Under the pieces are notes generated by a model that saw only the letters and a program-made list of their open reading frames with translations, was not told where the DNA came from and made no database searches. The translations under genes and the position numbers were made by a program. Positions 3,280 to 59,006 of a DNA stretch of 64,000 nucleotides are shown here, piece after piece. The stretch is from a virus (lineage: Duplodnaviria > Heunggongvirae > Uroviricota > Caudoviricetes). How positions within the stretch are numbered: the stretch's first letter is position 1; every line of letters starts with the position of its first letter. The stretch covers positions 1 through 64,000 of the IMG/VR virus record IMGVR_UViG_2936390555_000003, one strand, 5' to 3'.

Positions 3280-3298
3280 TTGTGAGAGGACATGACAC

Positions 3299-9135: not shown

Positions 9136-9333
9136 ATGTTCTATGAAAGCATGATAAAACTGAAAAAGAAGAACATCGAGGCCGTAATTAAAATCCCGTT
9201 TGATACCAGGGATGAAGCGTTGGTTGGGTTCAATAGGTTACTTGATATGCTTGATGAAAGCCACGATGATACCTTGAAGGTATTGAATAGCTTTGCTGGC
9301 AATGGTGTTAAGGAGGAGTCGCATGTTTTATGA
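9136..9333 (+). CDS. hypothetical protein (65 aa)
   Basis: RBS CTGAGGAGGAATTG before ATG 9136. Confidence 0.5.
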   Translation: MFYESMIKLKKKNIEAVIKIPFDTRDEALVGFNRLLDMLDESHDDTLKVLNSFAGNGVKEESHVL

Positions 9334-13273: not shown

Positions 13274-13560
13274 TTGTCCGTGTTCTCGTGGATTTGAATG
13301 ATGAGGGGTGGCTATACCTCCTCACCATTCAAACAGAGGATAAAGACAGGCTCTTTGAGTTATTGAAAGAGCATAGCCATGATGTAAGATTCATCGAAGA
13401 AAAAGAGGAGCCTTCCAAGAGGGACACAGGTGACCGCAAACTAGACGATGGAAGCATTGTCCTGCGTTGCCAGTCCTTTGGAGACAAGGTTGGTGCAATG
13501 TACGCCTTTGGCAAGAGCCAGGGCAAAATGTGCACCATAGAAAAGGCGGTGGCAGTATGA
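13270..13560 (+). CDS. hypothetical protein (96 aa)
   Basis: ATG overlaps the dut stop (ATGA). Operon context. Confidence 0.55.
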   Translation: MIVRVLVDLNDEGWLYLLTIQTEDKDRLFELLKEHSHDVRFIEEKEEPSKRDTGDRKLDDGSIVLRCQSFGDKVGAMYAFGKSQGKMCTIEKAVAV

Positions 13561-13958
13561 AAGATACCATTGCCCAGTTCATGGATGACTATAATACCGG
13601 CAAGATTTCCTTGGTAGACCTGCAACGCAGATTGGCATTTGACCAGTGGAAGCAAGACAGTAAATATACTAGACTAATAGAGTACGTTCCTAACATGAGA
13701 TGCCCGGAAGACATCGTACTCGCCAAGTATGATTACTTGGAACTCTATAGCTGTCTTATGAAGCTAAGGCACCGCGTATCCAGTACCACTTGGAAAATCC
13801 TGTGCATGGTTGCATACGGATATACCCAGGAACATATCGGTCAACGGTTGAACTTAGGTCAGCCAGCGATAAGCAAACGAATAAGCAGGGTTCTTCCCAT
13901 AGCTGAAAGGTTAAACTTGAAAGCACTGCTTCACGCGGTAATTGCATGGAAGCAATAA
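13557..13958 (+). CDS. ArpU-family phage late transcriptional regulator (sigma-70 region-4-like HTH)
   Basis: Internal ATG 13557 overlapping the upstream stop. HTH TWKILCMVAYGYTQEHIGQRLNLGQPAISKRISRV. Last gene of the early operon, followed by terminators. Confidence 0.55.
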   Translation: MKDTIAQFMDDYNTGKISLVDLQRRLAFDQWKQDSKYTRLIEYVPNMRCPEDIVLAKYDYLELYSCLMKLRHRVSSTTWKILCMVAYGYTQEHIGQRLNLGQPAISKRISRVLPIAERLNLKALLHAVIAWKQ

Positions 13959-20045: not shown

Positions 20046-20831
20046 TTACTTTTCCTCCTTGTAAATCCTTTTCATGATTGCTGCTACGTCATCCTGGTCA
20101 ATATTAAGATACCTCATTGTAGTTCCAGGATTTTTATGTCTCATTGCAGTCTGAATGTACTGCAATTCAACGCCATGTTTTGACAGTGTGTTCGCAAAGT
20201 ATCTGCGGAAAGAATGTGGGTGATAGGGGAGACCACATTCCCTGCAAACCTTACTGACCATGAATTTCATACCCTCCAAGGTCATCGCTGCCTTCTGCTG
20301 GGTAACAAATAATTCATCCAGGTCATACTTGCGTGTGTCCAGGTATTCATCAAGTGACTCACGCACCCTATTATGGATAATGGGAACCACGGCATCCCGT
20401 TTCCCTTTTGTATTCCTGAGCAGGATTTTATTCCCAGATAAAATATCTCCGAGATGCAAGTTAGCAACCTCGGAGATACGGAGACCATTATATGCCATGA
20501 GGGCAAAGATTAATTTGTCTCTTGGGCGTTTCAATACACCCCATATTTTCTCAACCTCCTCATCGGTGGGGCAGGGCTCAATAGGATTATTACAACGATA
20601 ACCCTTGATTATCCTTGCCTTGTCCTTGGATAATTCACCGTAATAATCAAGCGCACTTTTGAGTACCGTGAGGTACATCTTTTTCGATGTGCCCTTGATG
20701 CTGTCGTCTGCAATGAACTCAATAATTTCCTCTTTGCTGCCTGTCTTGAATTTCTTCAAGGCATTACAGTAGTTCTCGTAAGTGTTCGGTGAACGTGTCC
20801 TCCGGATTTCCTCAAGATATTCTTTAAACAT
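20046..20831 (-). CDS. second tyrosine recombinase (short, XerC/D-like, 261 aa)
   Basis: Catalytic motifs AYNGLRISEVANL (Arg), HPHSFRRYFANTL (H-x-x-R), AMRHKNPGTTMRYL (His...Tyr). Confidence 0.85.
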   Translation of the reverse strand: MFKEYLEEIRRTRSPNTYENYCNALKKFKTGSKEEIIEFIADDSIKGTSKKMYLTVLKSALDYYGELSKDKARIIKGYRCNNPIEPCPTDEEVEKIWGVLKRPRDKLIFALMAYNGLRISEVANLHLGDILSGNKILLRNTKGKRDAVVPIIHNRVRESLDEYLDTRKYDLDELFVTQQKAAMTLEGMKFMVSKVCRECGLPYHPHSFRRYFANTLSKHGVELQYIQTAMRHKNPGTTMRYLNIDQDDVAAIMKRIYKEEK

Positions 20832-20833
20832 GC

Positions 20834-21841
20834 TTACATCTCCTCCCAGAGCATTTTCAAGGCGGTATCAAGGAGCTTGTTGCCTTCCAGGGCATCTACC
20901 ATAGGGCGTTCTGCAGAAGACTTCGTTCTCCTTACCGGTTCAGTATGATAAGCAAAGTCACTCGCTGCTGAAATAAATCCCCAGCCATCAACGAGGTTAC
21001 CATTCCAATGGTCAGCAAGGTCAGGAGCCTTGAGGCACCTCATGAACCTCACCCTATTTTCTGAGGCTCTCTGCGTTGCAATATCTCCCATGTCAGCATT
21101 GATAGGGAAGAGCCTATTGACCATCTGACATCCACGCTCAGTACCAATCTTTACATGGGCAAGAGCCTCGGCTGTATCGTTGAGAGCCTTGTTGTATTTG
21201 GTCTGCATGGCAAGAATGTTCTGACATTCTCTTACCTTGCTGGCAATGTCTCCCTTGTGAGCAAAACTCCACTTGCGAGCAGCCTTTTTCAGTGCCAGGT
21301 TCATGGTATTCTGGCAAAATACACGGACATTCGTGAAGCATACGCTCACCGCACGGGTTCCGTCGAAGCTATTGGCGAACAAGAGATAATTCTCGAACTC
21401 ATCTCCGAGAACCATGCTGTCGGGCGTTCTTGCGAGCATCCATATCACCTTGGAACCCTTGACATGACCAGCAGTTTCCAGTTGTATATCATGTTCAAGA
21501 AGCTCGTCAATAAAATCAAATGCTTCCCAGTTCTGGACAATGCGATACTTCTTTCCCACAGTTCCGAGGATTTCTCCATTGTCAGTACGATAGTTTGCCA
21601 CTGCACCCGTAGGGACCTGCACCCCATCGATGTAGCAGAACTGGTCTGCCTGGGACACGGTAAAGTCCAAGTCTGCAAGATGCAATGCATCCCGCATTTT
21701 CGTGGAGCCAGGGAAGGTGATACTTCCAAGGCTATCCCACGGATTCTTACGGGTATCATACATGCTCTTTGGTACGATATTCCTCTGATTGATTACGGTA
21801 TTCCTCTGATTCACTACTGCTAACATTTTTATTACCTCCAA
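20834..21841 (-). CDS. DUF932-family (phage/plasmid-like protein) protein
   Basis: 335 aa. Motif ANSFDGTRAVSVCFTNVRVFCQNTM matches the DUF932 NSxDGSxA...C.N core. RBS GGAGG upstream. Confidence 0.55.
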   Translation of the reverse strand: MEVIKMLAVVNQRNTVINQRNIVPKSMYDTRKNPWDSLGSITFPGSTKMRDALHLADLDFTVSQADQFCYIDGVQVPTGAVANYRTDNGEILGTVGKKYRIVQNWEAFDFIDELLEHDIQLETAGHVKGSKVIWMLARTPDSMVLGDEFENYLLFANSFDGTRAVSVCFTNVRVFCQNTMNLALKKAARKWSFAHKGDIASKVRECQNILAMQTKYNKALNDTAEALAHVKIGTERGCQMVNRLFPINADMGDIATQRASENRVRFMRCLKAPDLADHWNGNLVDGWGFISAASDFAYHTEPVRRTKSSAERPMVDALEGNKLLDTALKMLWEEM

Positions 21842-30783: not shown

Positions 30784-30871
30784 GGAGCCATGGCAGAGTG
30801 GTTTATTGCAGCGGTCTCTAAAACCGATGATGTTCACGCATCCGTAGGTTCAAATCCTACTGGCTCCGCCA
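30784..30871 (+). tRNA. amber-suppressor tRNA, serine type: tRNA-Ser(CUA), class II with 16-nt variable arm
   Basis: Cloverleaf: acceptor GGAGCCA/UGGCUCC; U8; D-stem GCAG/UUGC with G18G19; anticodon stem CGGU/ACCG; loop CUCUAAA (anticodon CUA at 30818-30820); variable arm UGAUGUUCACGCAUCC (GAUG/CAUC stem); T-arm GUAGG-UUCAAAU-CCUAC; discriminator G73; CCA encoded. SerRS identity elements present (G1-C72, G2-C71, A3-U70, C11-G24, long arm, G73). Anticodon loop equals bacterial tRNA-Ser(CGA) with G35 changed to U. Confidence 0.8.
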
Positions 30872-31430: not shown

Positions 31431-31553
31431 ATGGAAGAAAAGAATCGCAGACCTCGCCATGTGAAAAAGGGCAAGGATCTGCGCAGACATGTGAAGGACA
31501 GGGATGACTACAGGGCAGCCAAGAAAGAAATATTTGAGCATAGAGCACGATGA
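31431..31553 (+). CDS. small basic protein (40 aa; MEEKNRRPRHVKKGKDLRRHVKDRDDYRAAKKEIFEHRAR), tentative
   Basis: ATG 3 nt after the upstream stop. Overlaps the next start (ATGAATG). Coordinates hand-derived. Confidence 0.3.
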   Translation: MEEKNRRPRHVKKGKDLRRHVKDRDDYRAAKKEIFEHRAR

Positions 31554-32506
31554 ATGACTTGGTTACAACGATAGACGATAGAGAAGCCGTGACATCCAGC
31601 CGTGTCGTGGCAACAGCCTTTGAAAAAAGGCATGACAATGTTTTGCGAGACATAAGGGGTCTCCTCAAAATTGAGGATACCCAAGGAATGTTCTACAAGA
31701 CTACATATATCAATAAGCAGAATGGACAGAAGTACACGGAGTACCTCATGAACCGCGATGGGTTTGCCATACTGGTCATGGGGTTCACGGGAGCTAAAGC
31801 CCTTGAGTGGAAAATGAAATTCCTGAATCAGTTCAACGCCATGGAATCCGTCATCAGACAGCACGGTCTCGAAGGGAAGGTGCAGAAGTCTCTTGATGCC
31901 ATATCTGACCTGCGAAAGCAATTGAAGGACTCAGGCATACTGAGGGAGTACATAGCTCCCCATCATTTCTTTGACCACCTGGCAGCTCGATGGAAGGAAG
32001 CAACGCACCGTGAGCGCATAAGGGACTTCTATGATGATATTGGTTCTTACGCTGGCGTGAATGTTCCTTATAGCAACATGATAAACATTACAGTCAAGGA
32101 TTGGCTGTTGAATCATGTTGGACTCAGTACCATTGAGGAGCTTGTGATTGGGCTGGAAACACATACGATTACATATTCTAACCGAGGCAAGCCAGTGTCA
32201 AAGCATGGTGTCTTCGGGAACAAAACTGAATGGACAAAGATTGTTAATGAGTTCGGCGGTCGATGTGCTTATTGCGGAGCTGAGGGAACGCCATTGATTG
32301 CCGAACATATCATTTCACAATCCGCGCTGTCCAAAGACCACCCTGAGAAAGTTGACTTGATAGGAAACATTATTCCTGCCTGTCAGCAATGCAACCGATA
32401 GAAATACACGACCGACTTTGAGAAATGGTTCCCAAAGCAGCCATTCTACTCAAAGGCACGGCACAAGAAGATAATAGAACACATGGAGAAGTATGAGGTG
32501 AAGTGA
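31550..32506 (+). CDS. Rha-family regulatory domain fused to HNH endonuclease; contains 1 in-frame TAG (32399-32401)
   Basis: N-terminal Rha motif TSSRVVATAFEKRHDNVLRDIRGLL. C-terminal HNH motif CAYCGAEGTPLIAEHIISQ...NIIPACQQCNR. The frame continues through TAG for 34 more codons to TGA 32504-32506. HNH next to terL is typical. Confidence 0.6.
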
Positions 32507-40131: not shown

Positions 40132-40902
40132 ATGGCTAACGTAGCAAACATTTTGAACACCCCAGTATTGCTCCATGGTATCGGTAAGGGCGTACTCAAG
40201 ACCGTATAGGGCAAGATTCTTGAGTTCACCACTGCTCAGTCCATGAAGCTGAATGTTACCACCTCCTCCGAGGATGTATACGGTGGTGACTCCCTGTTCC
40301 CTCTGTACACCTACCTGACTCAGAAGGAAGGCACCGTTGAGATTACCAACGCTGACTTCAAGCTTTCCCAGGTTGATATTGCACAGGGTACCAAGACCAG
40401 CACTACTGGCAACAAGCGCAACTACATGGTAAAGATTACCAAGGACAGCTCCAAGCTGACCGATGATTCCGTTCCTGTAACTGGTGTTGAGGTTATTGCG
40501 ATGGTAGGTCCTGATGGTAAGAGCGTACCTGTAGCAACCGATGCTGGCGATGATGTTGTTGCAATTTCCGCTACCGGTGCGATTACCGTTGGCACTAACG
40601 TAACTCTGGATGAGGGCGAGTACAACGTATGGTTCCGTGCTGACAGCTCCGCATCCGTGGCAGCTGAGATGCTGAAGAACGCTATGCCAGAGGTATCCGA
40701 GTTCACTTGGATGTTCACCACCGAGGATGCAGATGGCAACAAGTATCAGATTGACATCTATGCCCGTCGTGTCCGTGCAAACGGTGAGCTGGCTATTGAG
40801 ACCGCACGTGATTCCGCAAGCACTCCTACCTTGACTGTCAAGATTCTTGACCCAGGCGATGGCAGGGATGACTTTGCAACCATTACTATCACTAAGCTGT
40901 GA
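40132..40902 (+). CDS. major tail protein, putative; 1 in-frame TAG (40207-40209)
   Basis: MANVANILNTPVLLHGIGKGVLKTV-TAG-GKILEFTT... runs in frame into ORF 40243..40902. Followed by a strong terminator (high-expression gene architecture). Precedes the G/GT chaperones. Confidence 0.55.
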
Positions 40903-40908
40903 GAATGA

Positions 40909-40946
40909 AAGGGGAGGGCTGACTGCTCTCCCCGTTATTTTTTTAT
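40909..40946 (+). terminator. rho-independent terminator (GGGGAGGGCTGACTGCTCTCCCC + TTATTTTTTT)
   Basis: GC-rich hairpin 40911-40933 followed by a T-run. Confidence 0.7.
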
Positions 40947-41189: not shown

Positions 41190-41468
41190 ATGAAGAAAAT
41201 ATTATTGATGGTAATAATGTTACTGAGCTTTAATGGCGTATGCAGTGCAAGCGATGGGAATAACATTGGCGTGGACAGGTTTGCCCACTTTGGCATTTAG
41301 TATGTCATTTGCGACCAGTTGCATCGCAATGCTGGCATGAATAAGTTCTGGGCTGGCGTGACCACGCTGGCTATCGGCGCAGCTAAGGAAGCCTTTGTGG
41401 ATGACCACTGGGATGGCGGTGACTTTGCAGCTGATTGCGCCGGTACATTTCTTTGCGTAACATTTTAA
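41190..41468 (+). CDS. small secreted/lipoprotein-like protein (92 aa); 1 in-frame TAG (41298-41300)
   Basis: Strong RBS TTGGAGGGATTTAT. Signal peptide MKKILLMVIMLLSFNGVCSA. The frame continues through TAG to TAA 41466-41468. Antisense ORFs in the track were rejected. Confidence 0.45.
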
Positions 41469-41482: not shown

Positions 41483-41848
41483 ATGGAAACAAACACTATT
41501 TCTATGTATGAAACTGTTATTGACAGGAACAACAAGAAGCACAAGGTATTTTCCGTGCGCTTCAAGGACTTACAGATTGTAACCTCTTTTACAGAGAAAT
41601 ACAATCCTGACTTTTTGACCATGTACCTTCTGGCTCCTGTAAGCGAGGATGGCGAGGTAGTCAAGGATAAGGATGGTAACATTGACTATAACAACGGCTT
41701 CAAGGATGACCTGCTGGAGATTATTGAATGCGCCTTGGATTATCGCGAGAGCCGTGAGCAGATAGAGGAATGGTTGGACATGGCAATCGCTAAGGAGATT
41801 ATCAATACTTTCCTTGGGCTTTCCCAGTTCAAAAAAAAAGCGATGTAA
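41483..41848 (+). CDS. tail assembly chaperone (gpG-like)
   Basis: RBS TCGGAGGGATTACT. Located between the major tail protein and tape measure. Ends ...QFKKKAM with an A9 slippery run in its last codons. Confidence 0.6.
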   Translation: METNTISMYETVIDRNNKKHKVFSVRFKDLQIVTSFTEKYNPDFLTMYLLAPVSEDGEVVKDKDGNIDYNNGFKDDLLEIIECALDYRESREQIEEWLDMAIAKEIINTFLGLSQFKKKAM

Positions 41849-42060
41849 AGGAAAAGACTGAATGGAGAAACCTATTTGCCTCCATTGTCCAGAACACTAG
41901 CATGACAATGGAGGATATAGGCAATCTCCGAATCAATCAGATGGAAGATTTATTGGAAGGTATGAATGAGAATGCGGAAGCATTGGAACGCGAGATGAAG
42001 GGCGAGGTAAAGCCACTGGAAGGCGATGCTGCCATTAGAAAACTTATGGGAGGGATGTAA
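41483..42060 (+). CDS. tail assembly chaperone G-T frameshift fusion product (-1 frameshift at 41831-41840)
   Basis: -1 frame reads ...KSDVKEKTEWRNLFASIVQNTSMTMEDIGNLRINQMEDLLEGMNENAEALEREMKGEVKPLEGDAAIRKLMGGM, ending just before the tape-measure ATG. Confidence 0.45.
41831..41840 (+). promoter_or_regulatory. programmed -1 ribosomal frameshift slippery site (A AAA AAA AAG)
   Basis: A9G run at the 3' end of the chaperone gene. The -1 frame is open for ~73 further codons (to TAA 42058-42060), encoding a plausible gpT-like extension. Confidence 0.5.
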
Positions 42061-42061: not shown

Positions 42062-45000
42062 ATGGCCACAGAAAACGATAAGCCAAAACTTGGATTGGAT
42101 ATATCCATAAGCACAACGAGCGCATTTAACTAGGTTAGGCATCTGAAAGAAGAAATCCAGAAGCTCAAGAATTTAGCCGATAAAGGAATTGACTTCTCCG
42201 TAAACATTGGCAGTGTTATTAAGCAGGCGAACAGCGCACTCAAAGAGGCACGTAAATCTATTGATGACATCAAGAAGTCAGCAATGGAGGGTGGCAAACT
42301 CAAGCTTGAACTTTCAGAGACTGATATAGCAAAGATTAACCAGGGCATGACTGAGTTGCAGACTGCCATGACCAAGGCATCTACGCTGGGTATGGAGGCG
42401 TGGGCTAGAGTTGACCGCGGTATAACTAGGGCTCGCAAGAACCAGAGTGAATTTATGAGGGAAAGCTATCACACGAATTTCCAGAATTTCGCCGGTCAAT
42501 CTGAAGATCTCGTTCTGAAGACATAGAACGAAAATGTGAAGAATGCAATTGCCCATCAGATGAATAAGAAGTATTCTGAGTATGACTGGTCTGACCCGGC
42601 CAAGCTGGAAGAGGTGAGAAAAAAATTCTTTTAGCTTGTAGATTCATACAAAGATACTGCCGACCTCATGAATCCAGAGAGATTTGCAAGGTTTATTTCT
42701 GAGTATAGAGCTATAGTAGACCACGCACCTGCATCCGCGGATATAGGAGACTCCCTTAGAATATTAAAGGAGCGCAACATGGATAAAGTGTTCCAAAAGT
42801 ATTTCAAAGATACTCATATTGCAGGGATGGAAAACATTTTCAAACAGGTTGCTACGCTTGACGATAAGAACTTTGAGTCTATTAAACCGACAATAAAAGA
42901 GGCAATAGGTAATATACGTGAAGCAGGGGGTAACAGCTCTTTGTTCGCTCCACTGGCAAAGCAATACAAGGATAATCCTAGAATGCTTGATCTTTTACCA
43001 ATCTATCCTAATAAAATTATTGACTGGGACAAGATGTTATATGGCGAGGGCGCAACTAAGACCTCAGTAAATCTCGATGCACTGCATAAGGTAAGCGAGG
43101 CTTTGCGCCAGGCTATTATGGAAGTCGTTAAAAGCGTAGAGCAGATAAAGAACGCTGCTGCTACGACTGCTGTTTCAATGAATACGATAGCACCTTCATC
43201 GGCTTCTCCTGTACCGCCTGAGAAGAGCAATCTTGTAGTGCAGGTGAAGCAGGAGAACGATGAAATCCAGAAAGCCCTGAAGCAGCGTGAAGCTCTCTTG
43301 AAGCAGCTTAACGATATGAATAACCTTGTAGCTAAAAGGCCATACGAGCATCGCCTGGAAAAATTGGATAAACTGAATGCAACCCTGTCAACTAATGGCT
43401 ATGGCATACAGCTTCCAAGGTTCTATGCAAAAAGCGGTGACAAGGAAGCTACAAATGCAGCTTATGACAATTATCTCCGCGAGGCATCCGGTTACAATTC
43501 CATGCGCAAAGAGCTTACTTCCATGATGGAACGTGGTATCACGCCTACCAAGGAGCATTGGAATGAAATCAGGAATAACTATTTGTCCATGCTTGACTCC
43601 CTGAGGGAAAAGCGTTACAAGATTTCTCCGGTATCAGATGATTTTACTGGCGGAACCTATGAAAAGTTCCTTGCAAAAATGAGGGAGTTCCAGCAGACCG
43701 CAAAAGCAAATGGTATCGTACCTGTTACCGCTGATGCCCGTCAGGTCAACGAGAAAATTGCTGAGTTACGTAAAGCCTTGGCATCCCTGGAAGCATTTAG
43801 CATTAGGATTACAGCGAACACTGAGCCTATCATTAAGGCAGTTGACTCCGTGATTGCCAGATTGCAGTCTATGAAGGACGTGGCTATCACCGTAAATGCG
43901 AACACAAAGCCGTTCATAGAGGCGATAGATGCTTGCATGGCAAAGTGCAAAGAGCTCAAGCCAAATATAGAGTTCGATGCAGCAAAACTTAACACAGAGC
44001 TTGCAAAGATAAAAACTGTTCTCCCTATTGCTATTGACTTTGAGAAATATCGTGAGGAGCTTCAGAAAATCCAGAAGTACACCAATAGCTTACCACATAT
44101 GATACTCAAGGCTGGACTTGACACAAGCGAGTTCATTAAATCCGTTGAGGCTGCTAAAATTAAAGCCAAAGAAATAAAGGATATTCGTTTGAATATTGAT
44201 GCGAGCGGTGTTGAACCTGGCTATAACAAGTTCAAGGATTTCGTTGATTATGCATACAGGCACAATCCTATTGCAATTGGTGTTACAGTGAATGAAACTA
44301 GTCTCAGTGTTATTGACTTGTTGCTCAATAGGGTCCAGGCATTACAGTAGGCATCTAGGTTGCAGATTGATTTTAAGAAACTCTATGATGATATAAAGGT
44401 TCTTGAGCAGAACTGTCCTACCATTAAATTGCCTATCTCAATTGATAAAAATATGTTCAAGGAGCAGGTGGGTAAAATCGCTTCTCCAAAGATTTCCACT
44501 CAGCTCAAGATTGAACGACAGAAATTCCGTGATGAAATCAAAGATGTTGGCGAGAAACTTCCTAAGATAAAGGTGGGTATCGGAGTTGATGCAAAGGGGT
44601 TCCATGACGAAGTTAAGAACGTTGGCTCACAGCTTCCTACGGTAAAGGTTCCTGTTACAGTTGACTCGAAGTTCTTTAAGGACGAAACCGCACGCATACA
44701 GGAAATACTTGATACCATAAAACCCGTATCCATAAAGGTCAATGCTGACACACAGCAGTTCATTTCTACTATAAAGGAGTGCGTTGATGAGCTCCACAAG
44801 CTCAAGGACATAACCGTTACAGTAAAAGGTAAGAAGCCTAAAGAAAAAACAGCTGCTGTTACAGAGGATACTCCAAAGAAGGCTAAGGGGAAAGCCAAGA
44901 AGGAGATGGACTACGATGAGCTCCTTACTATGCTCAAGATAAATCAGTTTTCTGATGGTATATCGCAGAGTAAATCCACTGTAGGCGCAAGGCTCAAGAG

Positions 45001-48000
45001 CGTAAGGAACCTCCAGAGTGCAGCGATGCAAGGCGGATGGCAACCGAGCGCCGAGGATTTGGCATGGCTGGCAAATGAGCGCAATGCACTTGAACGGAAA
45101 AACGAAGCGGTCAAGCTGAACAGTACCAGACCTGGGACAAACCTTATTGACGAGTATATTCGCTTGAGAGAACAGGAGTCTAAAAGATTCTCTGAATAGC
45201 TCCGCAATCAGATGAACGAGCGTGTTAAGCAGGAAAACAAGATTACTGATGAGGAACTTGCTGCAACCAAAAGACAGCTTCGTAGAAATCTCAAGGAATG
45301 GCAAAAGAATAATACTGCAATTGCGAAGGCAAAAGAAGAAGCTCGTAAGAGAGAGTTAGCCAAGGAAGCTCAGGCTGCCAAAGAGCAGAAGGAATACAGC
45401 GACCGCACGGCAAAACTTCTTGTTCAGGAAAGATTCGCTCAAACAAAGGAACAGGAAAAGGCAGAGGAAAAAGCTCGCAAGCGTAGATTAGCTCAGGAAG
45501 CTCAGGCTACCAAAGAGCAGAAGGAGTACAGTGACCGCACGGCAAAGCTTATGACCCAGGAAACCAATAGGCTCCAGGCATTGAAGGATAAACTTGCAAA
45601 GCTTCAGAATGACATTACCATCTCCCAGCTTTCCGGCAAGAAGATTGCCATGGATTCCTGGCTGAGGAAGAGTGACAGGGAGGCCGAGCTTATCAATAGC
45701 ATCATGTCCATGGGTGGCACGGCAAGCGCGAAGTACAATGGCATCGCAGGATTCAAGGAATACGTTAAGCCTTGGAACCAGCAGGATAAACTCAAGACTG
45801 ACAATAAGGAATTGAAGGAAGCCCTTAAAACATACGAGCGTATCGAAGCCATCCTTGTACGCATCAGGAAAACAGGAATTATCCCTGATAATATCGACAA
45901 GTTGAAGCAGAAAGAATTGGAAGCAAGGTCAATCATTCAGAAGAGCTTTGGCGGAGCACTTGGTTCTCCTGCACAGCAAGCTGCCTTCAATGCAAATTAT
46001 CCGCAGGTATTGACACAGCAGAATATCGATGCTGCAAAGTCCGGCGCTGAGATAAGCAAGAGGCTCAAGGGTGAAATGCGGAGTGCCATGAGCGAGTTCA
46101 AGAGCCTCATAAAAGAGGTAAGGCGCGATGCGATAAATGGCACTGGTCGCTCTGAATACTACTTGGCAAACCGCAGTAGCAGGATTGCTGAGATACTCCA
46201 GGGAGTTGATAAGAATACCAGGAACGCTCTTTTGATGAGGTATGAGAATGATATTCATAGGGCATACGCAAACCCTGCTGACATTAACGCCAAGGCAATA
46301 GCCGAGGTAGAAAAGAGACTTGCAGAGCGTTGGCAGAAGTTTGATATGCTTGACAACGTCACTCCAAAGGCATATACAAATATGTATCAGTATCTCGTGA
46401 GAGCCGTAGAAAAAATTGGCTCCATGGGCGGCATGTACGATGGTCGCGTGCTGACCAAGACTCCGGAGGAGTACAAGGCAAGCTATGTGAGACCTTCGAC
46501 TGGTATAGATGAAGCTGCACGGAAGCAGCAGAATTTAAATGCTATTCAGGAAAGATACAACGCTGAACTTGAGAAGCAGAATGCCCTGATGACCTACGGC
46601 ACACTTCTTTCCCAGAAGCAGATTGATACTGCAATCAGGAAACTCGAAGCATTGCGCAAGAAATACGAGGAACTGGGCGGTGAGCGTAGCAAGCTTCAGC
46701 TGTCTGACATTGAAGCTGCTGGAACTACTGCTCGCGATGTGAACTCTGCAATCGTTGACCGCAATGTGAAAGCATGGAGCACGGATAATGTGGCAACCGT
46801 GTCCCAGGGCTTATCGCATCTCAGCGGAATGCAACAGGCCCAGTACAATGCATGGCTCCAGGACCCAAGCAAGAATAACCTGAAGAACCTTACGCTTACC
46901 ACAGCAGAGATGAGGAAGCTTAACAGGGAGGCCCAGCGTTATCAGCGTGTTGTCAACGACACCAATAAGACGATGGAAAGCCTTAATAATAAGATTCACA
47001 ATCATCTTTCCTGGATGACAAGCGGACTGTTCATTGGAACTATCTTTGCTATTCCTGCTGAGGTAATGAATCAGTGGAAAGAACTGGAGTATAGCCTCGC
47101 TGGTATCAGGCAGGTTATCACGGAAATCGAAAAGAACGAGGGAGGCAATGCGTTTAAAGAAGCATTTGATCTTATGGAGATTGCCAAAAAGAACGGCGTT
47201 GGCGTTGAGGAGACCATGGATGCAGCCAAGTCTATCGGTCGTATGTATGGCAAGAACCCTATCGACTCAAACGGTGTCGAAGAAAAGGGCGTTGGTATTC
47301 GCAATACAAACCTGATTACTTCACAGGCAGCGAAGATGGCAGTAGCCGATGCCTTCGATATGGAGAATGCATTCAAGGGATTGGAGGCAGCATTATCCCA
47401 GTGGAACTTGCAGACAGAGGACACAAACCAGCTTCTCATCAATACCAATCGTATACTGGAAGCATGGACTATCACAGCTCATGCCGGTGCTGCATCGGCT
47501 CAGGACATTGGGCAGGCAATTGAAATTGCTGGTACTGCCGCTGCAAATGCAGGCGTGTCATTCGAGTTCTTCAATGCCCTTGTTGCTACAGGTGTACGGC
47601 AGACTGCACGAAGCGGTAATGAAATCGGTCAGGCAATCAAGTCCATGATGGTTTCCATGCAGTCAAATAAATCCCTGAAAGCCTTGAAGGAATGGGGAAT
47701 AGAGTTGTATAATGTAAGCGAGGATGGCACGAAATCCATGCGCTCCATGGAGGACATTATTCTCGATGTATCCCTGCTCATGAACAATACGGCAAAAGAT
47801 ACCAGAGGACTGCTGACTACGCTGTCTGGTGGTAAATACCAGTATTCAAAAGTATCAGCAATGCTGGGCAATTATAAAGAATTGCTCCGCATGATGAAAC
47901 TCATTAACAACCCTAATGATAATCTCATGGAAGGCAAGCCTGGCTTATTCATCGACCAGCAGGTTGAAGTGCAGATGGACACCTTACAGAGAAAAATCAA

Positions 48001-51000
48001 TTCCATCAAAGCGGATGCACAAAACATCATATTTGACATTGGTGTAAACGCAGGTGGCTTGGATGCCCTCAAGTGGCTCGCTGACAAGATAGATGACATC
48101 ATTGTAGGTACACAGAAAATAGGGGATAAATGGGGAGAGACCGGTACTAAGATAGCTGGGGTAACAGTAGCAGTCTTGGCTTTCTATAAGGCTGTTGAAA
48201 AAATATAGGTAGCCATGAAGACATACGAGATGTACAAGGCTGCCTACAATGCTACTGGCAACACGTAGTTTTTCCAGTCACTTCTTGACAATAGAAAGAA
48301 GGAAATAGAGCTCAAGGCTTCTCAGAAAGTGGCGAGTGCCATGAGCGACAATGCTATTGTAGGTGGGAGAGCCGCTAGTACCGAAGCTAATACAATAGCA
48401 ACCAATGCTAATACAGCTGCGAGAACTGCTAATACCGCAAGCAATACTGCGAACACGGCAGCTACAGCGGAAAATACCGTGGCCAGCGCAGCGAATACAG
48501 CTAGGAGGGCAGCGAACACAGCTGCTACCGAAGCTAATACTGTAGCAACAGTTGCTAATGTCACGGCTCAAAGGTCTGCCGCTGGTGCAGCAACGGGAGC
48601 AGCCACTTCAATGGGTGTAATGGCTACCGCTGGCATGACTGCTCGTGCTGGCCTTGCTGCCCTGGGCGGCCCGCTTGGTGTTGCAATTACAGCTTTGACA
48701 ATCCTTATTCCTCTTGGAATAGAATATGCATCAACTCTGGGCGAAGAAGCAAACGCTGCAAAGAAAGCTGCGGATGCACTTGCCGAGAAGAATAATGCAG
48801 TAGACCAGGAAATTTCCAAGGCTAACCAGCGTGAGCACGCAGCTATAAGCCTGGCAAACGCTTACAATAATCTAAGTGTGCAGATAGCTAATGGCACCCT
48901 GCGCACCGAGGAGGCTCAGAAGGCCGAAGCAGAAATGGCTGACCTCAAGCATACGCTGATTGGTATAGTTGGTCAGGAAGCAGTGGCAATAGACGAAAAC
49001 GGCAGGATTAACATTGACACCATCAAGCGAATGAGTAAAGCTGAGAAACAGGCAGCTATTGATAAGCTCAGGGCTGACCGTGATAAGCTTGAGTCAGAAA
49101 AGGCTGAGACTCAGAATACTATTGAGCTGACAAAACAGCGCATTGAAGCTATCAAATCTGAGATTGAAGCCATGAGGGAGCGTGCTGGTGCCAGCAGTAC
49201 ATGGGATAAGATAGCTGCCTCCGTATACCGTGGAGCAGCTTGGTTTGCACATGCTACAGGTCAGACCACGGACGAAGAGTATGAAACCAATTTGGAAAAA
49301 GCAAACCTCCGTGAACAGGGCGTTCCCGCCGAAAAACTCGCTGAACTTGATATGGCAACCAAAAGGGTATCTGAGTTACAAGGTAATCTTGATAAGCTTA
49401 ACCCAAACATTGATACTCTGAATAATGCAATAGGAAACCTTACATCCCTTGCAGAAGAGGGAAGTCAGACGTACAACCATGGCGAAATAGAAGAGCCGGA
49501 GGAAAAAGCCTCCGCTGGTAAATCCGCTGGCTCAGACTCTCGCCAGAACAACATGCAGGACCCTCGCATCCTTGCGCATGTCAGTCGTATTGATGAAATC
49601 GCAAGCAATACCAGCAACCAGGTATCTCTGCTTAATGACATTAAGTCCCAGCAGGGTAACTCCAAGGAGCTTTCCATACAGACCTTCGATACATACCAGA
49701 GGGGCATCGACGAGCTCAAGGCTGAACGCCAGAGGCTCAACGATTACCTGTATACCAAGAACGTAAATGCGTTCAATGGTCAGTTCTCTGTAACCATTAG
49801 CGATACCGCTGCATCCGATGCGGTGGTCGAGGCTGCCATGCCGTATCTTGAGAAGACCATGGAAAATGGTACCGAGGGCTGTGTCGAGGCTGTTACCAAG
49901 ATTGGCGAAAAAACCAGCAGCTTCCTTGCGCAAGAACTCAAGAACGGTGTAGTCCGTGTGCCTGTTCTTGTATCCGATGCTGAGAACGCTGGCATACCTG
50001 TAGTTCCTTACGATGCCAATAATGTAGGTGCCGGGGATGTTATCGTGTACGACAATAATGACCATGTGGTTATGGCTGATGGCAAGGGAGGGTATGTAGG
50101 CAATAGCTCCGGACTGAATCGTGTTGTACATAGACCTGACTACACAGCTATGGGCGGTCAGGTTCCTACCCAGATTATCAAGACTGGCACCATTGCTGGC
50201 GAAAGAAAAGTCCAGTGGAGCGACAGTCTTGCCAATTATGCAATTGATAATGATGGAACCATGCTTGATGCTGGTACCTGGGATAAGGCAGGGCTCTCTG
50301 GGCAAATTAAACTCATTGAGCAGGCATTGCAGGTCAAGGGCCAGGAGAATAACGAGTTCCTCATGCAGTTCTCCAAGGTGCTACTTGTCGACCTCAAGGC
50401 TCTCAATGATGCCGATGCTAAAACCAGAAGCCTTATTACCCAACAGGCTAATCAGTGGTTCACCGACATGAACGCTGAGGTATCACAGGCAGGAACCACG
50501 GCATCCCAGAAGGGGAACCGTGAGCTGTTCATGCTTGGCTCAGGAGCTACCGAATATGACAAGGCTCGCATCGAGCTCCAGAAGAACACGGCTGAACTCA
50601 GTGCTATGAGTGAAATCGTGGAACGTAAGCAGACACAGGATCTGAAGAATACCGTTGCTGGCAAAGCGTTCCTTGACAGCTACCTGCAGAAGCAGATGAC
50701 TCAGCGCGACCTCCAGTTTAAAACCGTTGTGGCCATGTATAACGATGCAAAAGCAACCACTGACCATAATGTCAAGATGCGTGATTATGGGAACAATAAT
50801 ACCGATGACCGCATGGGTGTCAAGCGAGCCACGGATACCCTGGCAGATGCGATGGTACAGGTTGAGCTTCAGCGGAAACAGTTGGAGCTTGCGAGAGATA
50901 CGGACGAAAAGAATTACCAGGAAATCCGCAAGATGGAAGAGTCTTACAAGGATGCCCTGGAAGCACTTCGTACCGCACAGAGACAGTACAACCAGCAGGT

Positions 51001-52204
51001 GCTCGATGGATTCGAGCAGATAGCCGAGGACTTCATGTTCAACGGCAAGTCCTTCAGGGATATTATTGATAATCTCTGGCAGGACCTGGGCAAGGATGCA
51101 TTGAGGGCATTGTTCGGGCAGGATATTAGCGGTAATCATTCCTTCCTTGCAACCCTGCTTGGTATTGGAAAGCCTGATGAGGAAATGGCGAAGGCACAGG
51201 CACAGGAGGAGCTCAAGAATGTTCCGCTTATCAATAACACCAGTGCTACTGACAGGAACACCTTGGCAGTAAACCAGCTTACTCAGGCTATGCTTGGTCA
51301 GGCACTTACCCCGTTGGCTACTTCCAAGTATACGTTTGATGCTACACGAAATGCGTATGAATCCGCGAGACCATTCAGCTTGCAGGAGAACGCATGGAAC
51401 AATGCGGTAGCAACGACAGGCTTTGGCTCACAGCCTACCTACGATTTCGAGGCTGACATGAAGCAGTGGAAGCAGAGCAACGATTACCTGAACCGCACGA
51501 TGGCACAGTCGAATCGCTTGAACGCCACCGGGAACACCGAACAGAAGAAGAGCAATGATGCTCTTGGCAAGAACACCAATGCTAATCTTCAGGTGGCAAC
51601 CGGGCTCATGGGCATCGGCAATGCCTTTGCAAACGGTGACTGGCTGGGCGGTCTCCTTGGCATAGCTCAGGTGGGCATGGGCTTCGGTTGGTTCAAGGCT
51701 GACGGTGGCAAGTTTGCTGACGGTGGTGCACCAGCTGGCAAGGTCACCGGTGCTGGCACTGGTCGCAGTGATAGCATCCTTGCTTATCTTGCCAACAAGA
51801 ACAAGTTCGTATGGCTGTCCAATGGCGAATATGTCATCAACGAGAAATCAGCGAAGGCACTTGGATACGATACTCTCGATGCCCTCAATGGATATGCCAC
51901 TGGAGGCAGTCTGGATTCATCGCCTGTCAATCCAACACCGTACATTCCTACGATTAATCCGCAGGTAGCCAAGAAGGCTACAAGGATTTCCGGGAACAGT
52001 GCCACGGAAGCCCTGCTGAGAAAGCAGAATAAATACATGGCCGAGCAGAACTCCATGCTCAGGAACATGGGCGAGTCCGGGAACGGTCAGGTGGTTGTAC
52101 TGAATACCCAGGCATCCAGTGCAGATGTTATGAAAGCACTTCAGGAAAATCCTAGAGCTGTTCAGGCTATCCTTGGTCGACAGCAGAGAATGGGCTTTAG
52201 ATAA
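42062..52204 (+). CDS. tail tape measure protein, single ~3,380-codon reading frame with 7 in-frame TAG (42131, 42524, 42632, 44348, 45197, 48206, 48266)
   Basis: RBS GGAGGGATGTAAT before ATG 42062. ORF-track pieces 42284.., 42668.., 44360.., 45212.., 48329.. are all in one frame, separated only by TAG, with no RBS or credible starts. TMP features: coiled-coil repeats, ...LSWMTSGLFIGTIFAIPAEVMNQW...AGIRQV, hydrophobic GGPLGVAITALTILIPLGI, low-complexity ANTA repeats. Ends TAA 52202-52204. Confidence 0.7.
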
Positions 52205-53536: not shown

Positions 53537-53965
53537 ATGCAGTACGAAGAATACATAGGCTTGCCATACAAGTTCAATGGCTCAGATGAGAATGGCGTGG
53601 ACTGCCTTGGGCTCGTAAAGATGTTCTATCGTAAGCATGGTTGGATTGATATTGACGATGGCTTACCGATAGACAAGGACACATGGATGAAATAGGCTCC
53701 CCGGCGCATCATGCGCTTCTTTGGCAAGCACTTTGACAAGACAAGGGAGCCGAAGGACATGCGACCGTCAGCAGTATGCATCATGCTCATCAATGGAGAA
53801 ATCCATTTTGGCATCTATCTTGGCTATGGTCGCATGTTATAGACACAGCTCACGACTGAGGGCTATGAGGACAGTTATACCACGATATACAGAAGGGACT
53901 TCTGGGAACCGTGGTTCAAGATTGCATTCAATAGAAGGGAGTGTGATTCTCATGGTACAGACTAA
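53537..53965 (+). CDS. NlpC/P60 (C40) peptidoglycan hydrolase; 2 in-frame TAG (53693, 53840)
   Basis: RBS TTGGAGGAAAAT. Cys motif GSDENGVDCLGLVKMFY, His motif EIHFGIYLGYGRML-TAG-TH. The frame continues through both TAGs to TAA 53963-53965. Confidence 0.55.
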
Positions 53966-54035
53966 GAAACGCCGTGGTGGCTGCAAGTGATTCGGGGGAG
54001 CTTCCATGCTCCCTCAGTAAGGAGGCATGAAAAAT

Positions 54036-54395
54036 ATGGAAACACTAAAGTTAATCCCAAGAGGTGATGTGACCAAGGCATACGACTATGGGAACAATGT
54101 TGTATAGTTTGAGAATGGCTTGCAACAGGTTCAGAGGAAATATGTGACTCCTCGCCTTACCTTGTCCATCCACGTCGAGGGTGACAAAGATATGAAGGAA
54201 TACCTGGAGGAATTCATCAATGCCAGGCATGGCAACTATGAAGCTTTCTATTGGACATACGAAGGGCACACCGATGTTTACCGTTTTGGCGAGAGTTCCA
54301 TACAGTTCACGGAAATACGTGGCTACGAGGGCGAGGGGACTGTGGGCTACAAGGCTGACATAAGCCTCCAGAGATGCAAGGAGCGTGAGTATTAA
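54036..54395 (+). CDS. hypothetical tail protein (119 aa); 1 in-frame TAG (54105-54107)
   Basis: RBS AGTAAGGAGGCATGAAAAAT before ATG 54036. In frame with ORF 54120..54395. Confidence 0.5.
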
Positions 54396-55189
54396 TGGTA
54401 CAGCTACCGGTATGCATGAATGAAATGAAGGACAAGGGCAATACCTTTTTTATTGAATTGTATACAATTGCACTTCGCACTGGTACAATTCATCTCGCTG
54501 CTTGCGATGAGGACATCGTATTCGATGGAGTGCGTTATATCGCAGTTCCTATCCAGCGAGAGTCCGTGACACGCTCCATGGACAACATTACAGACAGCTG
54601 CCAGCTCACGATAAGCGATGTTGACTATTAGCTCCTCGCTTATGTGGTGAATGGCTTTGACTTCCGCGGTGCCATGGCTACCGTGGTACGCATACAGTAT
54701 CCTGAGAGCCTCAATGACCCGAAGATATATGAATGGATATACGCTGGGACAATTGACGAGCCATCATTTGCCGAGGGAACCTTCAGCTGTAAATTGCAGA
54801 CCGTGTTCCCACAGGTGCAGTGTCCTAACCGTGGATACCAATTGGCTTGCAATAGCGAGTTCGGTGATGCCGAGTGTGGTTACAGACCAGCAACTGTGTC
54901 CGCTGTGGTCACGGGTGTCAATGGAAACATATTGTATGTGAACATGAATTTCAATAGCAACTATTGGAAGAACGGAGTAATCACGATTGCGGGGGAGTCC
55001 AGGATAATCGAAACGAATGCAGGGAACTCCCTTTAGATAAACGTGAATTTTCTTCAGGATAACATTGTAGGCAAGGTTGCAACGCTAAAACAGGGATGCG
55101 ATAAATCCCATGAGCGTTGCGCATATTATGGGAACACCATTCATTACGGTGGCTTCCCTGCGATACCGTTTGAATCAGTATGGAGGTGA
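54395..55189 (+). CDS. tail protein with C-terminal Cys/His cluster (distal-tail/gpL-like, tentative); 2 in-frame TAG (54629, 55034)
   Basis: ORFs 54395..54631 and 54644..55036, plus the downstream segment to TGA 55187-55189, share one frame. C-terminus CDKSHERCAYYGNTIHYGGFPAIP. Confidence 0.45.
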
Positions 55190-55193
55190 TTGG

Positions 55194-58100
55194 ATGCAAG
55201 GATATAACGTATTAAGCGATGAGAAGCATCGTGAAGTAATGTTTAACTTTGACCTCCAGTTGTTCGGCGGTGGAGGCGGAGGCAAGGGCGGAGGAAAACT
55301 CTTTGGTGTACTTGCTTTCGCTGCACTTGGATGGTTTTGCCCGGCAGCATTTGGGTTTGCTGCGTAGGCTCACTTTGGCGCAGCAGTCATGGGCGCAGCA
55401 TTGTTTTCCAGCGTATGGACTGCAACCCATCGCCAGGACAGCTATAACTATGACGGCGCATCTGACATACAGAGGTTCGAGCGTTCCCAGGAAACCATGA
55501 CCTCCGACGGAGACCTGCCTGTTGTCTACGGTCGCCGACAGATTTCAGGCAACCAGACATATCACAAGACCAATTCTGATTCTACGACCTTATGGAAGCA
55601 CGTTGTATTGTGCGAGGGTGGAATTGAGGGTATCGAGTCCGTGACAGCAAATGACCTGCTGATACCTACGGGCTCCCAGACTGGCAACACTGTATTCACC
55701 ATTCAGAACGTGAAGTACCCTGATGCGTGGGTAAAAAAGGAAGGGCATACGCTTACCCTGTATGCTAATGGAAATACCAAGTAGATTTACCTGTGCACCA
55801 AGGACGACTTGCAGAATCCAAATGCAAGTTTTTGGGAATATCAGGTATCTATGGGCTCGCTGATTTCCTATATCAACCGCATGGGCGAAGGCTGGCAAGC
55901 GTTTCCTATATAGAGTACCAATAAATATCCTGGGGAATTATGGGATGCATGGGGAGAGCAGGATGGTTAGTATGGATATGCGTGGTGGTTTTGGGTAGGG
56001 CCCAACGGCATACAAGTTAACAATGACCCAATCCTAAATGGTTTAAACTACCAACAGATTATGACGCTGATGAAGCTGGGGACTGGGCACACAATGGAAG
56101 CAAATGGCTGGATATATCGTTGTGTTGGCCAGGAGATAATAAAGGTCCTTACAGGGTATAAGAAAGGCTATGCTTATGTAAATGGTAAATATCAACGAGT
56201 AGATATTCCTATATACAAAGACAGGCTTGTAAATAAAATCTATCGCTATCACAAAGGTGGAGCTAGTTGTTACAGAAGTCCTGCAAACTTCCAATGCTCC
56301 ACGGTAACAGGCGGCACATCGTATACATTCCATGACTGCACGCCTCCGTAGAATTACAACGAGGTCGGTGGCTATCCTAATATGGCATGGCTGGACATGA
56401 CCTTCACGATTTCAAATGAGCTGAATGGTAATCCAAGCGTATCCTGCCTGGTCAAGGGGCGCAAGGTATACGACATAAGAACAGGCATAACCGCGTACTC
56501 CACGAATCCTGCATTGTGCCTCCGTGATTTCCTGTTGTCCAAGCGGTATGGCTTAGGCAAATGGTTCACTGCGGACATGCTCGACACGGACTCATGGATA
56601 GAAGCAGCGGACTACTGTGACGAGCAGATAACATTCCTTGATGGACAGGGAGCCAAGGTCACAGCAAAGCGTTATGAGCTGAACATGGTTATCGACAGCA
56701 AGCGCACGGGACTGGAATGGGTACAGGAGATTCTTGCGAACTTCTGTGGCTACCTCGTATACAGCGGTGGCAAGCTGAAGCTCAAGATTGAAAAGCAGAC
56801 ACCTGTATCATATAAGTTTACCGACGATAACTGCTTTGACCTGAAGATTTCACCGCTTGCTCTGTCGGAGACACCGAACCGCTATGAGGTGACGATAATT
56901 GACCCGTTGAATAACTGGGCAGCAGTGAAATGTATATGTGATGACTACGCAGACCAGAAGGAAAGACAGCGGATAGTAACGAAAGCTGTGAGCCTCGAAG
57001 GCGTAACATCGCAAAACCAGGCATTACGTTTGGCAAGGTTCTATCGTGATTATAACCTTGTGTGCCCTATTCAGCTATCGTTCACTACAGGCATGCAGGG
57101 AATGCATCTGGAACCGGGCGATGTCGTAACTGTATCATACCATGGTGTGTTCAAGGATATGCCGATACGCATCAATGAGATAAAGGAAACAAACAAGGGC
57201 ACTTTTGAGATAAGTGGTAGGCAGTACAACGATACGATTTATGGAGACATCCTGGGCGGTGGCATCCACTGGTATAACTATAGCACCATGCAGACACCGT
57301 TGGTCGGTGAAATCCCGGAGGTAATCAATCTGCAAGCGGTAGATGATACCTATGTACTAAAAGATGGGACGAAGAATTCCACCATAAAGCTCACATGGGA
57401 AAAGCCATCTGGTTACCAGTTTACCAGCAGTTATACGATAGATTATTCACTGGACGATGGAGCAACATGGATAGCAGCTGGAAGCACGAGGGAAACCAAT
57501 TTCTCTTTCCCTGCTCGCATGTACTGGACACATCTCATCAGGGTTCGCGTTGAGAATACCGTGGGACGATTGTCAGCCGGTGAGAAAACATCTGTGTATG
57601 TAAGCGGAAAGAACAATCCTCCATAGGATGTAGTGAATCTCAAGGCAGAACTTTTGAATCAGAGCATCCATCTTACCTGGGATGCCAACGCTGATCCTGA
57701 CCTTAAAGGGTACAACGTGTACATGGGGATTAACGGATGCGAGAAATCCAGTTGTGAGCTTGTAGCCAAGGCACATTCATCGAATACCATTATTATTCCG
57801 ATTGAGTCCGCGGAGGACTACATATTCTACGTTGAAGCTGTGGACACTGCCGGGAATATATCTGAGCATGCAGCGTATGTAAATGTTCACCTGGATCCAC
57901 TACCTGCGGTTACAGGGTTTTACGCTGTAAAGAATGGCGATAACATAAATTTCTATTGGGACAAGGCTGGCGATTGCAACTATGAAATCCGCTGGGGAAA
58001 TTCATGGAAGACAGGGCAGCTTGTGGCTAAAGTGAATTCAAATGTGTATACGCATTTCTTTCCGCTGATAGGCACGTATTCATTTTTCATCAAGGCATAT

Positions 58101-59006
58101 GATGGGCTTGGCTTGTACAGTCGTGATGCTTCGTATGTAAGGATTACCCTGACTCCGGCGGTAACACGCAATATCATAGCTGAGTTCGATGAAAGAGCCA
58201 ATGGATGGCGAGGGGCAAAAAACCTTACATACGTTGGAGATAACTGCTTAATCAAAGGAAGCAGTGCAGTGAGCGGAGAATACTATACGAATATAAGGCT
58301 GGACAAGGAAGTAGAGGCACGCAACTGGGTAGAGTTTGACATCATCAGCCTTGCCAGTGATTATACGTGGGTGACAGCGAATACCGATTGGCAGGACGGT
58401 GATTATGCATGGCTACAGACCGAAGGCAATTACCGCTGGTGCGATGCCGAGAAAGCGTGGACGGACTATGAATTTTCATGGAAGGAAAATGCTGACGAGT
58501 ATCCGGTGGAAGTAAGCAATTACATTGCCCAGTACAAAGGAGTCGACGATTACCTGTACACATTCGACCTGAATGAGAATACAGATGGGGCAAAGGTGGC
58601 TACTGGCATAACCTATGCTGATGGCAAGTTCAGGCAGGGGGCCGTGATAAACAATGGCGTAACCTTGGATTATGCCGTGAATATACCAGCGGAGTTCAAC
58701 CTGTCTTTCAATGCAAAGCATCATGAGATAATAGACAAGCATATTGTCTACATGACACTGGAAGGCTCTAACGGCTGGATGCGCGTAGAATACAAGGATG
58801 GCATAGTGAGTCTGCTGGATTCGGCACAGAACCGCATCGAGATACCGATGAGGAATTACGGTGAGGATGCATTGAATTTCTATATACAGCAGAAGGCTGA
58901 CGAGAGAATCCTCACGGTCAACAGCATAGCAAATGGCAAAACCATGTCAGCAAGCTTACCGCTGGGACCTATGGGGACATTTACAGAAATGAGGTTGAGA
59001 CCATGA
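55194..59006 (+). CDS. host-specificity/central tail fibre protein (gpJ-like) with FN3 domains; single 1,270-codon frame with 6 in-frame TAG (55365, 55782, 55911, 55968, 56349, 57624)
   Basis: ORF-track pieces 55110.., 55389.., 56061.., 56382.., 57633.. are contiguous in one frame, separated only by TAG. FN3-like TWEKPSGYQFTSSYTIDYSLDDGATW and LTWDANADPDLKGYNVYMG. Gly-rich N-terminal segment. Confidence 0.6.

Follow-up and report, generated by a model that had tools for sequence, protein, structure and literature searches.

We analysed the tail tape-measure gene in the first 64,000 nucleotides (hereafter, the window) of the virus record IMGVR_UViG_2936390555_000003 of IMG/VR, which belongs to the Caudoviricetes. 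Nucleotides 42062-52204 of the window form, with a probability of roughly 85%, one tail tape-measure gene of a lambda-like siphophage in whose late genes TAG is an amino-acid codon, likely that for serine. As a tape-measure gene, it is long but an ordinary member of its class.

The tape-measure frame is interrupted only by TAG codons

The frame runs on the + strand from ATG 42062, which is preceded by GGAGGG, to TAA 52202-52204 and comprises 10,143 nt with 3,380 sense positions. It contains seven TAG codons, at codons 24, 155, 191, 763, 1046, 2049 and 2069 (nucleotides 42131, 42524, 42632, 44348, 45197, 48206 and 48266), no TGA and a single TAA, the terminal one. In the same interval, the other two frames contain 49 and 30 TAG, 36 and 114 TAA, and 75 and 155 TGA codons. 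The run free of TAA and TGA extends over 3,397 codons, compared to a mean of 165 and a maximum of 280 in shuffled sequences (n=500). Since only TAG is tolerated in the frame and shuffling gave no comparable run, the frame is too long for chance: the whole stretch is coding, and TAG is the sole 'stop' that it tolerates. The initial annotation of this DNA, made from the letters and their open reading frames (ORFs), had described the same start, end and seven interruptions, and the stop counts and shuffles bore it out.

The product was identified as a tape-measure protein by its PF10145 (PhageMin_Tail) core, whose score of 54.4 bits lies above the cut-off of 33.2 bits, by a match of residues 1484-2989 to phrog_4211, 'tail length tape measure protein' (E 3.7e-9), and by the position of the gene. 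The TP901-like core noticed at first was thereby confirmed. Like the PF10145 tape measures (TP901-1-type; lambda gpH is a functional analogue), the window protein has its gene after the G/GT chaperone and ahead of the tip genes, and it has a core, a hydrophobic segment, a largely helical prediction (of low confidence) and a conserved C-terminus. The tape measure of TP901-1 has 937 residues; that of the window is about 3.5 times as long, owing to an N-terminal extension of ~1,490 residues, and it differs further in the seven TAG codons of its gene.

Homologues of the N-terminal extension were found in close relatives only. In the AlphaFold model, residues 192-762 were ~75% helical with a mean predicted local distance difference test (pLDDT) score of only 38.8, which is too poor for any fold claim; the coiled coils proposed in the initial annotation gained little from it beyond the helix content. 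The extension contains a 132-nt (44-residue) tandem duplication at 45326-45563 (+), with 1.8 copies at 83% identity (Tandem Repeats Finder), a likely source of length variation; self-BLAST showed no large internal repeats in the tape measure. The low-complexity repeats and the hydrophobic segment that had been pointed out earlier were located at residues 2100-2250 (rich in Ala, Thr and Asn) and 2196-2223, respectively. Conservation is highest in the last ~180 residues, which presumably dock on the M/L/J tip complex.

The gene had been called exceptionally long. Its 3,380 codons stand, but the description is a relative one: the PHROG tape-measure profile that it matched is itself 2,625 positions long, and the tape measure of Thermus phage P74-26 has ~5,000 residues. 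By the lambda rule of ~0.15 nm per residue, the tail would measure ~0.45-0.5 µm. A half-micrometre tail is plausible and would not be a record; the longest tail known, that of the Thermus phages P74-26 and P23-45, reaches nearly 1 µm (PMC10034513). These two are also siphophages with a multi-thousand-residue tape measure, longer than that of the window, but they use the standard code and have no detectable sequence relationship to the window protein.

TAG is a sense codon throughout the late module

The late operon starts at ~31,550 on the + strand, continues up to the window's end and encodes HNH/Rha-like, TerL, portal, capsid, adaptor, tube, chaperone and tape-measure proteins, K/M/L/J-like tip proteins and fibres. 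In-frame TAG was found in 16 of the 24 late genes (35 TAG per 10,104 late codons), at a density of 2.1 per 1,000 codons in the tape-measure gene and 4.2 in the remaining late genes. Homology to the respective families runs across the in-frame TAGs of TerL, tube, adaptor, tape measure, L and J, and the same TAG pattern was seen in independent assemblies from several samples. All genes in the window stop at TAA or TGA, and TAG is never a terminator. The bodies of the ~35 early and middle ORFs checked (window 1-31,000), including those for primase-helicase, ribonucleotide reductase and integrase, are free of TAG. Without TAG inside or at their ends, these genes can be read with either code. TAG is a sense codon throughout the late module and is not peculiar to the tape-measure gene.

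A gene for a suppressor tRNA with the anticodon CUA, tRNA(CUA), sits directly upstream of the late operon (Table 1). The tRNA is 88 nt long, with a long variable arm of 17 nt and a 7-bp acceptor stem, and carries G1-C72, G2-C71, A3-U70, C11-G24 and G73. These features constitute the bacterial serine identity set, and seryl-tRNA synthetase (SerRS) does not read the anticodon. A near-identical tRNA(CUA) is present in the sister genome (L007, 7984-8071), and its change in the T stem is compensatory, which argues for a functional tRNA. The ten largest early proteins included neither a release factor nor a SerRS. Serine-inserting amber suppressors are known from E. coli, supD (serU), and from phage T4, psu1+. 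They likewise combine a tRNA-Ser body with a CUA anticodon and are charged by SerRS irrespective of the anticodon; however, they are laboratory mutants, whereas that of the window would be natural and fixed in the late-gene code of the phage.

Similar tRNA genes occur elsewhere. The 15-mer CGGTCTCTAAAACCG (CUA anticodon arm) matched at least 120 IMG/VR viral contigs. Using ARAGORN, we identified 114 tRNA(CUA) genes on the matching contigs (loci L022-L139), 45 of them at least 84 nt long, and tRNA-Ser-like forms at L022, L025, L072, L084, L088 and L090. Such serine-like class II tRNA(CUA) genes suggest that the reading of TAG as serine may not be unique to this lineage.

We propose that, once the phage tRNA(CUA) is made, ribosomes read the seven TAGs of the tape-measure gene as sense, giving one polypeptide of 3,380 residues, and serine would be inserted at TAG through charging of the serine-type tRNA by the anticodon-blind SerRS of the host.

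Conserved columns point to serine at TAG

To assign an amino acid to TAG, we compared the recoded clade with the outgroups L008-L017 (TerL 58-71% identical, with two at 30-40%), which lack in-frame TAG at all positions aligned in the genes compared. A column was counted as conserved when at least 80% of these outgroups agreed. The conserved columns that hold TAG in the recoded clade were three serine columns (HNH 284, TerL 45 and portal 107), at which the outgroups use AGY or TCN codons, and one lysine column; at conserved glutamine columns, TAG accounted for 0 of 185 residue observations. Serine columns make up ~3.7% of all columns, and three of four would fall there by chance with a probability of ~2e-4 by our arithmetic. 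The TAG in the HNH gene, the only one it has, lies in the HNH motif (CNRxK), and eight relatives have serine at that position. Across the 32 informative columns, TAGs common to three to six genomes face Ser, Thr, Ala or Glu, and those facing Gln are nearly all young (present in one or two genomes).

The young TAGs may be explained by mutational input. There are 165 CAG but only 8 TCG codons in the tape-measure gene, and 330 CAG versus 40 TCG in the late genes. With many CAG, few TCG and frequent C-to-T transitions, many young changes from Gln to TAG would therefore arise in a weakly constrained protein even if TAG encodes serine.

Because the tRNA is of the serine type, and TAG stands at conserved serine columns and never at conserved glutamine columns, we consider that TAG is probably, though unproven, read as serine instead of following the published assignment to glutamine. 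Genetic code 15 would be marked by a Gln-type suppressor and by TAG at conserved glutamines, and the window departs from it in both. Phage recodings in the literature searched were only TAG to Gln and TGA to Trp or Gly, and a published survey lists only TAG to Gln and TGA to Trp in phages whose code differs from that of the host. The lineage consisting of the window, IMG/VR 3300045988_145964 and L001-L006 is thus rather likely to use a phage code not described before, in which late TAG means serine by way of the host SerRS.

TAG-recoded gut phages with code 15 include crAss-like, Lak, Garnet/Topaz and phAss-1 phages (bioRxiv 10.1101/2021.08.26.457843, PMC9523058, PMC10607447). The window resembles them in its TAG-free early genes, in TAG within late genes including the tape measure, and in a phage tRNA(CUA); its layout is that described for stop-codon-recoded gut phages (bioRxiv 10.1101/2021.08.26.457843; PMC10607447). 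TAG was assigned to glutamine in those phages, whereas the tRNA of the window is serine-type and its conserved columns point to serine.

One tape-measure protein with glutamine at TAG, inserted through a tRNA encoded outside the window, a host tRNA or mischarging, appears rather unlikely. It would agree with the assignment of all published TAG-recoded phages found in the literature searched, and, as the window covers only 64 kb of a genome of 77-92 kb, a second tRNA could lie outside it. Ten of the 32 informative TAG columns face Gln (CAG or CAA), eight of them in the tape-measure gene, where codons 1046 and 2049 face CAG in close relatives, and glutamine would come out ahead in a simple tally of all columns with a substitution matrix. 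These columns count against serine at TAG, as does U73 in place of G73 in the sister tRNA of L007. Two further points weigh against reading the stretch as one recoded gene: the first ~340 residues, with three TAGs, are covered by TAG-containing relatives only, and the helical model of the N-terminal extension is of low confidence. On the other side, the sole tRNA(CUA) in the window is that of the serine type, the conserved columns carry TAG at serine and not at glutamine, and the excess of serine among the non-Gln columns is hard to explain if TAG means glutamine, since TCG is the rarest serine codon while AAG and GAG are common. A plain count of residues opposite TAG also suggested glutamine; it was no longer taken as decisive after young and old TAGs were separated and TAG-free outgroups were included.

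If the assignment to serine is correct, the seven TAGs of the tape-measure gene are serines, and pipelines that apply code 15 mistranslate every late protein of such phages; the annotation of recoded phage genomes would change. Capture of a stop codon by phages would then extend beyond the Gln and Trp routes to one via an anticodon-blind synthetase, in principle the easiest.

Relatives support one continuous tape-measure protein

Homologues were searched with TAG-free segments of the tape measure as queries. Among cultured phages, there was no match at the DNA level and only two, both weak, at the protein level. Relatives in metagenomes were plentiful, but gene callers using the standard code had fragmented them, with lengths of 794-1,627 residues; the gene thus shows how such callers shatter TAG-recoded genes in public databases. 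P0022 (1,127 residues, TAG-free), from a contig of an Anaerovibrio metagenome-assembled genome (MAG), spans residues 340-1852 and joins the extension to the PF10145 core. P0031 (2,280 residues), from a plasmid of Selenomonas ruminantium TAM6421, is named phage-related protein at NCBI, and the standard code was presumably used to call it. A single ORF without an in-frame stop encodes P0031, which is collinear with residues 1492-3380 (identity 36% in the core and 51% in the 180 C-terminal residues) but lacks the N-terminal extension. P0024 (1,363 residues) is collinear with residues 1595-3380. TAG-free or presumably standard-code relatives tile residues 340-3380.

In the sister genome IMG/VR 3300045988_145964, whose TerL is 99% identical, the ORF is also continuous, with 3,219 codons and 4 TAG. 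In L002, the closest relative, a 460-nt element is flanked on either side by sequence 91-98% identical to the window, and sense codons stand at the window TAG codons 191, 1046 and 2049; L144 has no TAG. The tape measures of the family, when joined, range from ~2,680 to 3,380 residues, and great length is therefore a family trait. A scan of genome contigs with the C-terminal domain gave weak, unrelated matches in soil MAGs only. The phage is one of the animal gut, with a genome of ~77-92 kb, and based on the one Anaerovibrio MAG contig and the Selenomonas homologue, its host is probably among the Selenomonadaceae.

These relatives bear on other explanations of the frame. In-frame stops are the usual mark of a pseudogene, but those in the tape-measure gene are TAG only, never internal TAA or TGA. 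The same pattern appears across 16 late genes and in assemblies made independently, and gene decay or misassembly is hardly credible. Two or more independent proteins had been named in the initial annotation as the case that would overturn a single gene. We regard them as very improbable, be it an N-terminal protein of ~1,490 residues followed by an ordinary tape measure or two halves like those of the split genes in relatives. The extension is missing from P0024, P0025 (1,749 residues) and P0031, and several relatives have a gene interrupted at codon 1852, codon 1925 or both, whose downstream part begins with ATG. However, the frame has no internal TAA or TGA, the TAG-free P0022 fuses the extension to the core, P0022, P0031 and P0024 together tile the frame, and the splits coincide with variably present insertions, of which that at site 1925 matches group I introns. 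A terminator scan found no strong + strand terminator inside the gene.

The initial annotation also raised the possibility of a ladder of C-terminally truncated tape measures, produced if some TAGs terminate at a useful rate; such isoforms could act in regulation or in the structure. In a standard-code host, release factor 1 should compete with a suppressor tRNA, and with read-through of 90% per codon the seven TAGs would leave ~48% full-length product; recoding has been proposed to delay the translation of late genes (bioRxiv 10.1101/2021.08.26.457843). Yet TAG is not enriched in the tape-measure gene, where its density is half that of the other late genes, and there is little conservation of its positions (the closest relative has sense codons at three of the seven, the sister genome has four TAGs and L144 none). 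No gene in the window stops at TAG, and essential genes such as those for TerL, tube and J need read-through as well. By the lambda model, moreover, fragments without the tip-binding C-terminus would be unable to nucleate tails or to set their length. A truncation ladder is therefore quite improbable, and production of one full-length tape measure remains the preferred reading.

A putative peptidoglycan-cutting domain

No peptidase domain had been recognised in the tape measure at first, but we found a domain of peptidase fold in residues ~2585-2710. The AlphaFold core of this region (pLDDT ~85) has a papain-like alpha+beta fold. In sequence searches with residues 2560-2745, no Pfam family, NLPC_P60 and CHAP included, matched at E<=10, nor did any relevant PDB entry; it was fold comparison alone that placed the domain, as a divergent member, in the NlpC/P60 superfamily (clan CA cysteine peptidases). 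The putative catalytic residues are invariant among homologues: C2607 in 147 of 147, and H2668 and N2681 each in 152 of 152. A profile-free search returned 196 cluster representatives, and the domain appears to define a sizeable family that has no Pfam model. Its homologues (P0036-P0182) include proteins of 4,000-5,800 residues. The domain also occurs in polyvalent proteins with LPD3, LPD38 and ddrB-ParB, and in large polyvalent proteins it adjoins glucosaminidase or SLT domains. P0031 has an SLT lytic transglycosylase domain (PF01464) in the equivalent region, between core and C-terminus. From these neighbours and from the domain of P0031, it is a reasonable inference that the NlpC/P60-fold domain cuts peptidoglycan, and it may help the phage to cross this layer. 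The tape measure of mycobacteriophage TM4 also embeds a peptidoglycan-hydrolase motif, although that hydrolase-type module belongs to a different domain family (PMC1796659).

Variable insertions in the tape-measure genes of relatives

In several relatives, the tape-measure gene still consists of two or three ORFs when TAG is read as sense. The interruptions are insertions at two sites in the region of the PF10145 core, which are empty in both the window and IMG/VR 3300045988_145964 (Table 1). At site 1925, the element of L002 matched the Rfam group I family (RF00028) with 36.4 bits, against a gathering score of 50 (local-search E 1e-7). Its 5' exon ends in U, which is paired with a G of the guide sequence (U.G P1), and cutting the element out at the U/G junction gives exactly the sequence LLTTLSGGKYQYSKVS of the window. 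The site-1925 elements of L001 and L003 are homologous to that of L002, and the L003 copy holds a GIY-YIG endonuclease gene. The site-1925 element is thus a putative group I intron. The site-1852 element has three core motifs in common with the site-1925 elements; its junctions differ between the P1-pairing prediction and the best restoration of homology. Rfam gave no match for the site-1852 element or for the L001 and L003 copies at site 1925, and no intron of this family was found anywhere in the window. Small ORFs for very hydrophobic proteins of 70-90 residues, not homing endonucleases, are present in two of the insertions (L005 ~5487-5756 and L002 ~13545-13755). The variable presence of the insertions would offer natural intron-plus and intron-minus alleles for homing studies.

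Gene neighbourhood

The tape-measure gene was originally placed directly after a G/GT chaperone pair. The adjacency holds, since the -1-frame extension of the chaperone stops at TAA 42057-42059, 2 nt before ATG 42062; the composition of the pair had to be revised, with G assigned to 41483-41848 and ORF 41190-41468 excluded. The 121-residue G gene is conserved in relatives, and by its layout the chaperone upstream of the tape measure is a canonical G/GT. ORF 41190-41468 (+), between the tube hairpin and the chaperone, is small, contains one TAG and encodes a signal-peptide-like N-terminus; it looks like a moron-type insertion. The tube orthologue in relatives carries PF27173 (YomU_Tube). Downstream of the tape measure, a lambda-like tail-tip module spans 53537-59006 (+).

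Table 1. Features of the window and of the insertions in related tape-measure genes (window coordinates unless a locus is named)
Feature	Position	Strand	Evidence
Suppressor tRNA, anticodon CUA, class II, serine-type, encoded CCA	30784-30871	+	ARAGORN; Rfam tRNA 56.6 bits
Rha/anti-repressor-like N-terminal domain fused to HNH endonuclease, just before TerL	31550-32506	+	
Tail tube protein gene, 1 in-frame TAG	40132-40902	+	phrog_2729, 2.3e-31
Terminator-like hairpin 3' of tube gene	40911-40933	+	terminator scan
Tail assembly chaperone G, 121 residues	41483-41848	+	position/frame analysis; weak match to phrog_25072
A9 slippery run (41831-41839) and -1-frame 'T' extension	41831-42059	+	three-frame translation, slippery-motif search
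Tape-measure protein gene (probable), 3,380 codons, 7 TAG, stop TAA	42062-52204	+	
Lineage-specific N-terminal extension, residues 1 to ~1490, TAG codons 24, 155, 191, 763, 1046	42062-46531	+	
PF10145 PhageMin_Tail core, residues 1752-1915	47315-47806	+	Pfam 54.4 bits, E 2e-14
Two empty insertion sites: codon 1852 (47615-47617), codon 1925 (47834-47836)	47615-47836	+	
Ala/Thr/Asn-rich low-complexity stretch, then hydrophobic segment	48359-48730	+	composition, hydropathy
Divergent NlpC/P60-fold domain (predicted), residues ~2585-2710, putative triad C2607, H2668, N2681	49814-50191	+	
Conserved C-terminal domain, residues ~3201-3380	51662-52201	+	51% identity to P0031 C-terminus
K-like minor tail protein	53537-53965	+	PHROGs 329, 38152, 778, 31 across tip module
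M-like tip gene	54027-54395	+	PHROG match
L-like tip gene	54395-55189	+	PHROG match
J-like central fibre, 6 TAG	55110-59006	+	PHROG match; TAG count
Codon-1852 insertions, 534-646 nt	L001 13358-14003; L003 13016-13661; L005 5377-5910		
Codon-1852 insertion, ~900-1,000 nt, boundaries not fixed	L144/L145; L144 ~5284-6300		
Codon-1925 insertion, 251 nt	L001 14223-14473		
Codon-1925 insertion, ~460 nt	L002 13334-13793		
Codon-1925 insertion, 1,265 nt	L003 13881-15145		

The ribonucleotide reductase gene of the early region is split into two pieces in different frames, 9287-10102 and 10222-11724 (+), which cover positions 1-211 and 226-522 of the Pfam barrel and lie ~210 nt apart. Rfam gave no intron match in the gap; the split could be due to a small intron or to a frameshift. 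A tyrosine-recombinase (phage integrase) gene is located at 20049-20867 (-), and given this gene the phage may be temperate.

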